Part shown: positions 55,814-59,944 of the stretch, piece after piece | Layout: every line of letters begins with the position of its first letter | Position numbering within the stretch: the stretch's first letter is position 1 | Assembly: GCA_026004535.1 (NCBI GenBank) | Contig: BPJI01000001.1 | Span: 143,915-207,914 of the forward strand | DNA: 64,000 nt | Source: Candidatus Parcubacteria bacterium | GTDB taxonomy: Bacteria; Patescibacteriota; Minisyncoccia; UBA6257; HR35 | Direction: 5' to 3' | Made by a program: the position numbers and the translations under genes | The notes under the pieces: generated by a model | The model's database searches: none | What the model was told of the DNA's origin: nothing | What the model saw: only the letters and a program-made list of their open reading frames with translations

Positions 55814-58800
55814 ATGCCCAAAAGAACATTGACTTCTAATCAGGTTGTTTTTAAAACAAGTTCAAATTTTTTAAAAATCCAAAGATTTTTTACTAAAGAA
55901 AGAGTGCACCCTTATGATGAGGTTAAATGGATAAAAACAACAGCTGAAATTCCAGGTTCTAATTTTAAAATGGAAGATGTGGAATTTCCTGATTTTTACA
56001 GTCAAAATGCAATTAATATTATTGCTTCTAAATATTTCAAAATCAACAAAGGTAAACAAGAAAAAAGTTTAAAAGAACTAATTGATCGAGTTGTTAAAAC
56101 GTTTAAAAAATGGGGTTTAGAACAGGGTTATTTTAATGAAAAAGAAGCCAAAATTTTTGAGGATGAACTAACTTATATCTTGCTTCATCAATATGCTGCT
56201 TTTAATTCTCCTGTTTGGTTTAATTTCGGTGTTGAAGGAAGAAGTCAACAAGGCGCAGCTTGTTTTATCTTAGATGTTCAAGATAATATGGAATCAATTT
56301 TGGATTGGATTAAAACTGAAGGAATGATTTTTAAAGGAGGCTCAGGCTCTGGAGTTAATTTGTCAAAATTAAGAGCCAAAGGAGAACCTCTTTCAACTGG
56401 CGGTGCTTCTTCTGGAGTTATTTCTTTTATGAAAGCAGCCGATGCAGTTGCAGGAAGTATAAAATCTGGTGGAAGTACGCGTAGGGCGGCAAAGATGGTG
56501 ATTTTAAATGCTGATCATCCTGAAATTATGGATTTTATAAGAGTTAAAGCTGAGGAAGAAAATAAAGTTAGAGCCTTAATGGAGGCAGGTTATGACATGA
56601 CTGATCTAAATAATCCTTTGTGGCAAAATATTTTCTTTCAAAATGCTAATAATTCAGTTAGAATTCCTGATGATTTAATGGAAGCAGCAATGAAAGATGA
56701 AAAATGGCAGACTTATTATCGAACAACAGGTAAGGCTTCACAAGCTTATAAAGCTAAGGATATTTTGTGGGAAATTGCTAAAGCTGCTTGGGAATGTGGT
56801 GATCCAGGAGTTCAATTTGATGACATTATTCAAAAATGGCATACTTGTAAAAATTCAGGACGAATTGAAGCAACCAACCCTTGTAGCGAATATATATTTC
56901 TTAACTGGACAAGCTGCAACTTAAGTTCAATCAATCTTTTGAAATTCTTAAAAGAAGATGGTAAGTTTGATATTCCTGCATTTTTGCATACTGTCAGAGT
57001 AATGTTTTTAGCTCAAGATATTATGATTTCAAAAGCTGATTATCCTCATCCAAAAATTACTGAAGAAACTAAAAAATATCGAACAATTGGTTTGGGTTAT
57101 ACTAATTTAGGCGCCTTGATTATGGCTTTGGGTCTTCCTTATGATTCTGATGAAGCAAGAAATTTGGCTGCAAGTATTACTGCCTTAATGACCGGGGAAG
57201 CCTATAAACTTTCAACCCAAATTTCAGCTAAACTTGAACCATTTCCTGAATATGAAAAAAATAAAGAACCAATGTTGGAGGTAATGGAAATGCACCGAAA
57301 AGCTCTATTGAAATTAATACAGAACTTTACAGAACTAAAACAAAACTCGCAGAAAAAACACAGAACTGACGGAACTAACACAGAACTTACAGAAAATATC
57401 GCCGCAGAACATACAGAACTAATACAGAACTTGCAGAAAAATTCAGCTAGTTCTGCGTCATATTCTGTTAGTTCTGTTACTGAGGAAATTTTAGAAAAAG
57501 CAAAAGAAGTTTGGGATGAAGTAATTGAAAATGGAAAAAAATATGGCTTCAGGAATGCTCAAGCAACAGTAATTGCGCCTACTGGTTGTTTAGTAGGGAA
57601 TAGTTTAATTTCAACTGAATACGGTTTAGTTCCGTTAGAAACACTTGGGAATCCATTGGGTTATAAGTGGCAAGATTTAAATATTGAGGTGATGACCGAT
57701 GAAGGACCACAATTAGCTACCAAATTTTATGTTAATGGTTTAGTTGAAACTAGAAAAATAGTTACTAAAAATGGTTATGAAATCGTAGGCACTCCAGAAC
57801 ATAGAATTAAAGTTTTCGATAAAGAATCTGGTGAGCTTAAATGGAAATATTTTGCTGATATCAAAGAGGGAGATATTGTAGCTTTAGAAATGAATACAAT
57901 TTTTGGCAGTCCTAAGCCAATCGAACTTCCACCTTTACCAGAACTTCATTGGAATCAAGATTTTGATGCCAAAGTTCCAAGACATATGAATGAAGAATTA
58001 GCAGAAATAGTTGGCTATTTTATGGGCGACGGCAGTCTACATTCTAAAGGTTTAAGATTTTGCGTGACCCAAGAAGATAAAGATGTGATTGAAAGATTAA
58101 GATATTTAATTAAAAGTCAATTTAATCTTGATATATTTTTAACCCAGAGGCTTGGTTATATAGAAGTTAGCGTAAACTCAGTTCCTCTTGTTTTATGGTG
58201 GGAAGCTTGTGGTTTTAAAAAGAAACAAAAGAAAGTTGGTAAAGGCTGGGAACCTCATATTCCTCTTACTATCCTTTATTCTAACGATCGAAAAATTTAT
58301 ACTGCTTTTTTAAGAGGTCTTTTCGAAGCAGATGGTACTGTCTGGAAGGATTCAAAAACTCCAGCTCTTTCGACTCATAGCAAAGAATTTCATGACCAAA
58401 TAAAATATTTACTTTTAGCTTTAGGAATACCAACAAAATCTAAAATTGGAATTTCAGGTTGGGACAAGAAAAACCTCTATGTTCTTTATGTGAAAAATAG
58501 AGAATATGCTAAAAAATTCGGAGAAGAAATTGGTTTTATTGGAGAAAGAAAAAATAAATTACTTGAAAATATCACCACAAAACCTAGTCAAATAAAAATG
58601 GATCAAGTTTATCTTTCTCAAAATCTTGTTGAAGCCATAACACCTCTTTTAACCAAAAGGGAAAGAGACAGTTTAAGGTTAGAATTTAAAAGAAAAAATG
58701 CTATTACTAGAAGTTTTGCTTTAAGGATTTTAGATAAAGTTGAAAATAAAGCCTTTAACTATTATGTAAATAAAATTTTCTTTGATGTTGTCAAAACAAA

Positions 58801-59944
58801 TGAATCAGCTGGAGAAAATCTTACTTATGACCTTTCTGTTCCAACAAATGTAACTTATATTGCTAATGGTTTTATCAGTCATAATACAATTTCTTTTATG
58901 ATGGATGCAGATACAACTGGAGTTGAACCCGATTTTGCTTTAGTTAAAATGAAACAACTTGTTGGTGGTGGTTATATGAAGATTGTAAATAGAACTATTC
59001 CTCTTGCCTTAAGAAGACTTGGCTATAGCGAAAAAGAAATTGAAGATATTGTTAAACATTTAGAAGAAACTCAAAATATTGAAACAGCGCCTCATCTAAA
59101 ACCAGAGCATTTATCTGTTTTTGATTGTGCTATTAAGCCACCCGGAGGAAATAGATATATTCATTGGCTAGGACATGTAAAAATGGTTGCTGCTATTCAA
59201 CCATTTATTAGCGGTGGAATCTCGAAAACTTTCAATATGCCTAATGAGACTTCAATTCAAGAAATTTATGATGCCTACTTTACTGCTTGGAAATTAGGAA
59301 TTAAATGTTTTGCTGTTTATCGTGATGGTTCAAAAGCAACTCAGGCTTTATACAGTGAAAAAAAGGAGAAGAAAAGCAAAGAAAAAATTGAAAGACGAAA
59401 ACTACCTTTAGTTAGGCAATCTGAAACTCATAAATTTTCAATTGCCGGCCATGAAGGTTACTTAACCTATAGCATTTTTGAAGATGGTTCTTTGGGTGAA
59501 ATTTTCATTCGTATGTCAAAACAAGGAAGTACTTTGGCTGGTCTTTTGGATGCTTTTGCAATTTCAGTTTCGATTGCTCTTCAATACGGTGTGCCTTTAA
59601 AGGAATTGGCAAGTAAATTTGTTTATATGAGATTTGAGCCAATGGGAATTACTAATAATCAAAAAATACCAATTGCAAGTTCAATTATTGATTATATTTT
59701 TAAATATCTTGGTTATAAATTCTTAACTCCAGAAGAATTAAAAGAAATAGGTTTAGAAGTTAAAGAGGAATCTATCTTAAAAGAACATCCAAGATTAATT
59801 GAATCAAAATTTGAGTTAGATCCGGTGAAGACAGAAAATAATTTATCTGGTCCGCCATGTAAATATTGTGGTGGAATGACGACTCGAACTGGTAGTTGTT
59901 ATACTTGTTTAGAATGTGGTGAAACTTCTGGCGGTTGTAGTTAG
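55814..59944 (+). CDS. nrdJ: Class II (adenosylcobalamin-dependent) ribonucleotide reductase NrdJ, interrupted by a LAGLIDADG intein and carrying an in-frame ACAGAACT-repeat insert
   Basis: 1376 aa precursor; [21 protein letters not shown], C-terminal Cys-rich tail; host junction VIAPTG|C...[20 protein letters not shown] restores the conserved APTGT...GVEP block. Confidence 0.85.
   Translation: [1376 protein letters not shown]
57305..57485. repeat. In-frame inverted array of ACAGAACT units inside nrdJ
   Basis: acagaactttacagaactaaaacaaaactcgcagaaaaaacacagaactgacggaactaacacagaacttacagaaaat...acagaactaatacagaacttgcag then inverted agttctgcgtcatattctgttagttctgtt; encodes ...[24 protein letters not shown]... 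Confidence 0.8.
57587..58885 (+). mobile_element. Intein (433 aa) with LAGLIDADG homing-endonuclease domain inside nrdJ
   Basis: Begins Cys ([10 protein letters not shown]...), internal YFMGDGSL and [20 protein letters not shown] motifs, ends ...[10 protein letters not shown] followed by Thr. Confidence 0.85.

Follow-up and report, generated by a model that had tools for sequence, protein, structure and literature searches.

A predicted class 1 intein with a LAGLIDADG homing endonuclease in the class II ribonucleotide reductase gene of a Parcubacteria bacterium

Ribonucleotide reductase (RNR) is the second most common intein host in bacteria, and 211 bacterial and 43 archaeal RNR inteins have been documented (PMC4760082), which bears out the description of RNR as a classic intein host in an earlier note on the DNA studied here. 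We analysed a stretch of 64,000 nucleotides from a Candidatus Parcubacteria bacterium (contig BPJI01000001.1, positions 143,915 to 207,914), hereafter called the window, in which nrdJ, the gene for a class II (adenosylcobalamin-dependent) RNR, carries an in-frame insert of 433 codons. The insert is very probably a canonical class 1 intein with a LAGLIDADG homing endonuclease, located in the conserved APTG/T loop of the NrdJ active-site barrel (the slash marks the insertion point); its splicing and DNA cleavage are predicted from sequence and a structural model.

The closest described elements are the inteins in proteins that NCBI names [quoted passage not shown] (P0003, P0007, and the Paceibacterota loci L022 and L036). 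They share with the window intein the host enzyme, the exact insertion point, a length of 430-434 amino acids (aa), the three-part architecture and the C-terminal motif before /T, and the Paceibacterota members are 74-78% identical to it, the Actinomycetota members 42-50%. Since several homologs are already named intein-containing RNRs by NCBI, the allele family is a known and annotated one, and the window intein is, judged by its sequence, a new member of it, with at most 78% identity to anything found. In literature searches we found neither an InBase site letter nor an experimentally characterised intein for APTG/T.

Among inteins of known structure, the best match was TliVMA (PDB 7qss), the active homing-endonuclease intein of the Thermococcus litoralis V-ATPase A subunit (Foldseek E 3e-26, template modelling (TM) score 0.75). 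Like the window intein, it has the order HINT domain, endonuclease, accessory domain, and it has both catalytic aspartates, but it is archaeal, it sits in another host protein at another site, and it is only 21% identical. PI-PfuI (PDB 1dq3) is a LAGLIDADG intein of similar fold (TM 0.68) from the same host enzyme family, the class II RNR of Pyrococcus furiosus. However, its identity to the window intein is only 17%, and it was not recovered by the PDB sequence search. It also appears to be non-allelic, because the alignment of the Pyrococcus RNR model NF006207 puts the intein of that model beside the equivalent of NP/C (extein residue 357) and not at APTG/T. A role in DNA binding has been proposed for the accessory domains of TliVMA and PI-PfuI, and the endonuclease of another intein, PhoVMA, is inactive because a catalytic aspartate, in block C or E, has been lost (PMC8966425). 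Closer to the window organism, the nrdJ genes of other Paceibacterota contain LAGLIDADG-type inteins at NP/C (L010, L013, L011, L036, and L075) and GG/S (L079); they share the gene but are inserted elsewhere in it (at extein residues 357 and 217/218), their identity to the window intein is only 24-28%, and they are independent elements. The organization of the window gene is as follows.

55814..59944, forward strand: nrdJ precursor open reading frame (ORF), uninterrupted, 1376 aa plus stop, encoding a class II RNR that contains the intein
55814..57586, forward strand: N-extein, residues 1-591, with the NPCSE active-site motif (Cys357) and a lineage-specific repeat insert (57315-57480), the latter outside the intein
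57587..58885, forward strand: complete intein, 433 aa (1299 nt, codons 592-1024), from Cys1 to His432-Asn433, in frame and free of stop codons
58886..59944, forward strand: C-extein, 352 aa plus stop, beginning at Thr+1 and ending in the Cys-rich tail CKYCGG...CYTCLECG

The whole precursor scored 1208.8 bits against NCBIfam NF005122, the equivalog model of B12-dependent RNR (cut-off 859), and 570.7 bits against TIGR02504 (NrdJ_Z). Pfam domains PF02867, PF08471, and PF12637 (RNR barrel, class II N-terminal domain, and TSCPD domain) were recognized on it, and the barrel match halted at residue 591, which is the final residue before the insert. This full-length equivalog score of NrdJ implies that splicing must rescue the host gene. 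The first base of the insert is in frame with the start codon (57587-55814 = 1773 = 3 x 591). At the N-terminal junction the codons CCT ACT GGT (Pro-Thr-Gly) are followed by TGT (Cys1) at 57587-57589, and at the C-terminal junction CAT AAT (His-Asn) at 58880-58885 is followed by ACA (Thr+1) at 58886-58888.

The alignment with 14 close orthologs showed that APTG is directly joined to TISF in 12 of them, and over 27 residues the joined flanks of the window were identical to the intein-free sequences of L001 and L010. The same 27-residue junction region is contiguous in the solved NrdJ structure 7b9q, which matched the region around the spliced junction with an E-value of 1.4e-61. The insert is therefore absent from orthologs, and its removal restores the host sequence exactly. 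The earlier note had identified the host as NrdJ, had placed a 433-aa intein with Cys1 and His-Asn + Thr ends at 57587-58885 and had claimed that excision restores the conserved sequence; the NF005122 score agrees with that host, the coordinates were right to the base, and the alignment to intein-free NrdJ, which it had proposed as a check, gave the exact match. Exact-sequence look-up of the 1376-aa precursor found no record.

The 433-aa insert was then scanned by itself. PF14528 (LAGLIDADG_3) matched in two stretches with 86.3 bits (E 1.8e-24, cut-off 22.5), PF14890 (Intein_splicing) scored 52.2 bits (E 7.8e-14, cut-off 35.8), and TIGR01443, the model of the intein C-terminal region, scored 23.4 bits (cut-off 15.6), so the matches to intein hidden Markov models (HMMs) are far beyond chance. 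Blocks A, B, F, and G are all present, and both LAGLIDADG motifs that had been read from the letters were located, at residues 138-150 and 240-251; the HMM search suggested in the same note thus came out in favour of an intein. The parts of the insert are listed below.

57587..57979, forward strand: N-terminal half of the HINT splicing domain plus linker, intein residues 1-131, with beta strands at residues 7-101 in the model; block A is Cys1
57791-57802, forward strand: block B, T69-P-E-H72 (Thr69-x-x-His72), conserved in the family alignment
57980..58534, forward strand: predicted double-motif LAGLIDADG homing endonuclease domain, intein residues 132-316, from PF14528, the modelled halves, and the Foldseek match to I-DmoI
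57998-58036, forward strand: LAGLIDADG motif 1, residues 138-150, with Asp148
58304-58339, forward strand: LAGLIDADG motif 2, residues 240-251, with Asp249
58535..58774, forward strand: helical accessory domain, intein residues 317-396, with helices at 320-396 in the model; the least conserved part of the intein
58775..58885, forward strand: C-terminal part of the HINT domain, intein residues 397-433, with block F LTYDLSVP (Asp415) and block G FISHN (His432, Asn433); matched by TIGR01443

The residues required by the canonical class 1 splicing mechanism have been reviewed (PMC7765530), and the window intein has all of them: Cys1, Thr69/His72, Asp415, His432-Asn433, and Thr+1. They were conserved across an alignment of 54 intein family members, in which only the rows covering a given column were counted. 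Position 1 was Cys in 33 of 35 rows, T69 was kept in 45 of 48 and H72 in 47 of 48, APTG preceded Cys1 in all 32 rows, and Thr followed the terminal Asn in all 26. Of the two catalytic aspartates, Asp148 was retained in 51 of 53 rows, and Asp249 was retained in 53 of 54.

An AlphaFold2 model of the intein was built on this family alignment and had a mean pLDDT of 93.7 and a pTM of 0.93. The modelled order is a beta-rich N-terminal HINT segment (residues 1 to about 101, then a linker), two halves each led by a LAGLIDADG helix (about 132-316), a helical domain (about 317-396), and C-terminal HINT strands (397-433). According to the model, the N- and C-terminal segments together form the HINT fold, and each endonuclease half has the topology alpha-beta-beta-alpha-beta-beta-alpha, the two halves forming a pseudo-symmetric pair. 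The best Foldseek matches in the PDB were all endonuclease-bearing inteins (TliVMA 7qss, PhoVMA 7qst, PI-PfuI 1dq3, PI-TkoII 2cw7, and PI-SceI, with 1vde also matched), and the mini-intein 1am2 was matched as well. Free-standing LAGLIDADG enzymes came next, with target TM scores in the range 0.64-0.71, including I-DmoI (target TM about 0.70) and I-Tsp061I. In the model, the helical domain of the window intein occupies the place that the accessory domains have in TliVMA and PI-PfuI. Motifs and model together indicate a monomeric, two-motif LAGLIDADG homing endonuclease that is apparently intact.

From these features the following course can be proposed. Translation would give the 1376-aa precursor, in which an N-to-S acyl shift of Cys1 at Gly(-1) would form a thioester that passes to the hydroxyl of Thr+1; cyclisation of Asn433 would then free the 433-aa intein, and an O-to-N shift would leave a 943-aa NrdJ of native sequence. 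Such autocatalytic splicing is what the conserved residues and the modelled HINT fold predict. The freed intein would act as a monomeric two-motif LAGLIDADG endonuclease with the catalytic residues Asp148 and Asp249. It would recognise and cut uninterrupted nrdJ around GCGCCTACTGGT/ACAATTTCTTTT in intein-less alleles, and repair templated by the intein-bearing copy would spread the element. The activity of the endonuclease, its target, and its cleavage pattern are likewise predictions, and the candidate substrate is the fused empty-site sequence of the window flanks, GCAACAGTAATTGCGCCTACTGGT/ACAATTTCTTTTATGATGGATGCA. Compared with the joined flanks of the window, the empty sites of its closest relatives show synonymous differences only, and that of L010 matches 40 of 48 nt. 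We take the APTG/T loop of NrdJ to be the counterpart of the class I RNR loop that binds the substrate phosphates. If this is correct, an unspliced insert should inactivate NrdJ, and this would explain the strong constraint on the splicing residues.

A homolog search with the intein alone covered 5.8 billion proteins (E <= 1e-5) and found 224 intein homologs; where Pfam domains are on record for them, these nearly always include RNR domains. At least one splice junction was included in 98 of the best 120 of the 224 homologs, and all 98 were at APTG/C or HN/T-I-x-x-x-x-D-[CA]-D-T-T-G of an NrdJ, while the remaining 22 of the best 120 were fragments without a junction. Among junction-less homologs (P0100, P0109, P0021, and others), some end in ...ASGFLVR or ...SHSN rather than ...SHN/T and some have no Cys1 at the start; decay of the intein, a frameshift in the assembly, or a free-standing derivative could account for them. 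The named hosts included Actinomycetota, Candidatus Binatus, Limnocylindrales, Gemmatimonadota, Omnitrophica, and Nanoarchaeota. The nearest inteins were P0001, P0005, L022, and L036, with 73-78% identity (L022 77.6%, L036 74.5%).

To see which relatives carry the element, the N-extein was scanned against one genome per species, which gave 79 related NrdJ loci. The closest of them belong to Patescibacteria of the Parcubacteria/Paceibacterota group, and this places the window organism in that group. Only L022 and L036 among the 79 loci carried the allele of the window intein at APTG/T, and most of the others had an empty site there (a few end before reaching it). The unrelated inteins at the other two nrdJ sites, described above, were seen in the same scan, and L036 has two inteins in its nrdJ. 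In the L036 copy of the window allele (8653-9954), the second motif reads FEADRTV instead of FEADGTV, a Gly-to-Arg change beside the catalytic Asp that might impair the endonuclease of that copy.

On an extein tree (neighbour-joining, 864 ungapped columns, without bootstrap, so that the topology is indicative only), the closest relative of each of the three carriers was intein-free at APTG/T: the window grouped with L010 and L001, L022 with L013, and L036 with L004. The carriers were not monophyletic, and the pattern needs about 8 losses if loss alone is allowed or 3 gains if gain alone is allowed. The exteins of L022 and L013 are 95% identical, yet APTG/T of L013 is empty, and that gene has another intein at a different site. 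Sporadic presence at one fixed site among close relatives is the footprint of mobility, and this is what the loci show.

Selection on the carriers was estimated as the ratio of nonsynonymous to synonymous substitution rates (dN/dS) by the NG86 method for the three carrier pairs (window-L022, window-L036, and L022-L036). The endonuclease domain (residues 126-330) had a dN/dS of about 0.12 in all three pairs, the N-terminal splicing domain 0.12-0.14, the exteins 0.12-0.19, and the accessory region (residues 331-405) 0.22-0.46. The endonuclease domain is thus under purifying selection, and this constraint together with the intact catalytic residues favours a still-functional endonuclease, as far as sequences can tell. 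The intein had a GC content of 0.312 and a third-position GC content (GC3) of 0.178, and the exteins had a GC content of 0.33 and GC3 of 0.205 and 0.170. Between carriers, the dS of the intein was about equal to that of the exteins (about 1.0-1.2). Because dS is alike and the composition is like that of the host, there is no sign of recent import. Composition was dismissed as a mark of such an import, and the comparison of dS is uninformative about recent horizontal transfer because both values are near saturation.

Several points weigh against an intein with an active homing endonuclease. The TIGR01445 model of the intein N-terminal region scored 22.7 bits, slightly under its cut-off of 24.5, and this family (NVTY) lacks His at the block F position where inteins often have it. 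Since dS (about 1.0-1.4) is near saturation, the dN/dS values should be read as approximations. Moreover, a structural requirement of splicing, and not nuclease activity, could account for part of the constraint on the endonuclease domain, and long vertical residence with repeated loss fits the data as well as an old homing cycle does.

The alternative that survives best, although we consider it unlikely, builds on these last points: the intein splices but its endonuclease is inactive, and the element is a vertically inherited resident that is kept since loss of splicing would destroy RNR. The equal dS of intein and exteins between carriers fits such co-divergence, the host-like GC3 of the intein agrees with it, and decay after fixation is the expected fate of homing endonucleases (PMC8966425). 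But both catalytic aspartates and the full LAGLIDADG motifs are intact in the window intein and nearly invariant in the family, the dN/dS of the endonuclease domain is as low as that of the splicing domain, and the carriers are scattered among intein-free sister lineages, where loss alone has to be invoked about eight times as against three gains. We therefore prefer the canonical intein with an apparently functional endonuclease.

A much broader scenario would have one APTG/T allele family circulating across Actinomycetota, ultra-small Patescibacteria, and DPANN archaea, with large NrdJ-encoding phages as vectors, and perhaps persisting in minimal genomes as a conditional regulator of the supply of deoxynucleoside triphosphates (dNTPs). 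Of this, the data show the shared site and the homology across those hosts and across three IMG/VR contigs classified as viral, in which a homologous intein was found at NrdJ APTG/T:

4001-5278 of L080: intein with 41% identity to the window intein
4001-5332 of L081: intein with 31% identity to the window intein
2923-4254 of L082: intein with 31% identity to the window intein

One of these contigs is 234 kb long, and the three are possible vectors. Other viral matches in IMG/VR were inteins in terminase-like and other genes. In a tblastn search of 50,697 GenBank phage records there was no same-site NrdJ intein; the inteins that it recovered were all distant (27% identity or less) and belonged to terminase, helicase, and polymerase genes. 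The direction and recency of transfer and any regulation would go beyond what the shared site and homology suggest, and taken as a whole we regard this scenario as quite improbable.

The regulatory idea by itself, in which co-option would have turned the intein into a conditional post-translational switch that controls dNTP supply in response to redox, temperature, or another signal, seems to us very unlikely. What speaks for it is indirect: the site is in the active-site loop of the rate-limiting enzyme of dNTP synthesis, the intein persists in very small genomes, and functional roles have been proposed for inteins in replication-related proteins (PMC4760082). However, near the junction the N-extein offers no cysteine (positions -3 to -1 are P-T-G) with which Cys1 could be trapped in a disulfide, most close relatives live without this intein, and the patchy distribution is the pattern of a selfish element. 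That the insert does not splice at all, and is a nuclease domain placed within an RNR that is dead or neofunctionalised, is hardly credible, because every splicing residue is conserved, the insert breaks a motif that is invariant in active NrdJ enzymes, and the exteins are under purifying selection (dN/dS 0.12-0.19) with the NPCSE motif and the Cys-rich tail retained.

The earlier note had also counted a ACAGAACT repeat insert in the N-extein as a second selfish element of this gene. We found 10 matches of the ACAGAACT unit in the whole window against 1.46 expected, 7 of them in the array at 57315-57480 and the other 3 isolated. The array consists of about 6 direct copies with a spacing of about 10-11 nt, followed by about 3 reverse-complement copies, AGTTCTG(T). 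Its RNA fold had a z-score of -2.9. Copies of the unit occur in each of the three reading frames (TEL, QN, and RT), which makes it a repeat of the DNA and not of the peptide. The insert adds about 51 residues (window residues about 508-558) that are absent from 13 of 14 aligned orthologs, and the remaining one, L011, has an unrelated insert in the same NrdJ loop. The ACAGAACT insert is therefore a real, lineage-specific, hairpin-type repeat array. But no further ACAGAACT array was present elsewhere in the 64-kb window or in 128 fetched loci, so the selfish or mobile label is unsupported by these data.

The nrdJ gene of L011 (Candidatus Paceibacter sp. KUB_Bin06) contains two in-frame arrays of its own, at 5559-5740 and 6104-6274, which likewise have direct and then inverted copies. 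Their units are GCGAACT/GTTCGCG and ACACGAAT/ATTCGTG, and the second array is in the NrdJ loop that holds the ACAGAACT array of the window. Together, the arrays of L011 and the window suggest that in this clade such arrays are generated or inserted by a recurrent process.

Another kind of repeat in the window was built from the unit ATCCGGTTnnnATCCGGG (CCGG arrays), with 28 matches against 0.03 expected. There are four palindromic arrays, each with several copies in one orientation and then several in the other:

7427-7515: ATCCGGTTnnnATCCGGG array
11253-11389: ATCCGGTTnnnATCCGGG array
55484-55752: ATCCGGTTnnnATCCGGG array directly upstream of nrdJ
60834-61178: ATCCGGTTnnnATCCGGG array

For the array directly upstream of nrdJ, the predicted fold is a hairpin about 270 nt long (-127.7 kcal/mol, z = -9.7). 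Between the two largest arrays (55484-55752 and 60834-61178) lie nrdJ and a gene for a tyrosine recombinase (XerC/XerD-like; 59941-60822, reverse strand), which is convergent with nrdJ, the two ORFs overlapping by 4 nt at their stop codons. The other two arrays are in frame inside the ORFs 6940..8649 (reverse strand) and 10260..11510 (forward strand); translated ATCCGGTTnnnATCCGGG arrays read ...PGYKPDEINYPDINRISSSYPGNLSGNNPGSISGNNQGY... in a topoisomerase I-like ORF and ...PGYKPDNNYPDLDRIILPGFKSDLSDNNPRNISGDHPGNLSGNHPGNN... in a secreted-protein ORF. No ATCCGGTTnnnATCCGGG array was found in the 128 fetched loci. In-frame palindromic elements occur in genes of Rickettsia, and the ATCCGGTTnnnATCCGGG-type arrays are similar to them in effect and not in sequence. 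These palindromic hairpin arrays are a more unusual feature of the region than the intein. An Rfam scan of 55300-61200 (E <= 1) gave chance-level matches only, all far under the gathering scores, which ruled out a riboswitch or a group I/II intron at nrdJ.

The intein is a real but ordinary example of a well-known selfish element. For annotation, nrdJ of this organism should be described as one 1376-aa precursor yielding a 943-aa enzyme; labels such as fusion, split gene, or pseudogene should be avoided. The predicted endonuclease and its target of about 30 bp may find modest use as a rare-cutting enzyme or a splicing module. The finding adds a well-conserved intein, with an endonuclease that appears from its sequence to be active, from an ultra-small bacterial phylum. 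It also marks nrdJ as an intein hotspot in this clade: at least three different sites are occupied among close relatives, and this makes the clade a convenient natural system for the cycle of intein gain and loss.

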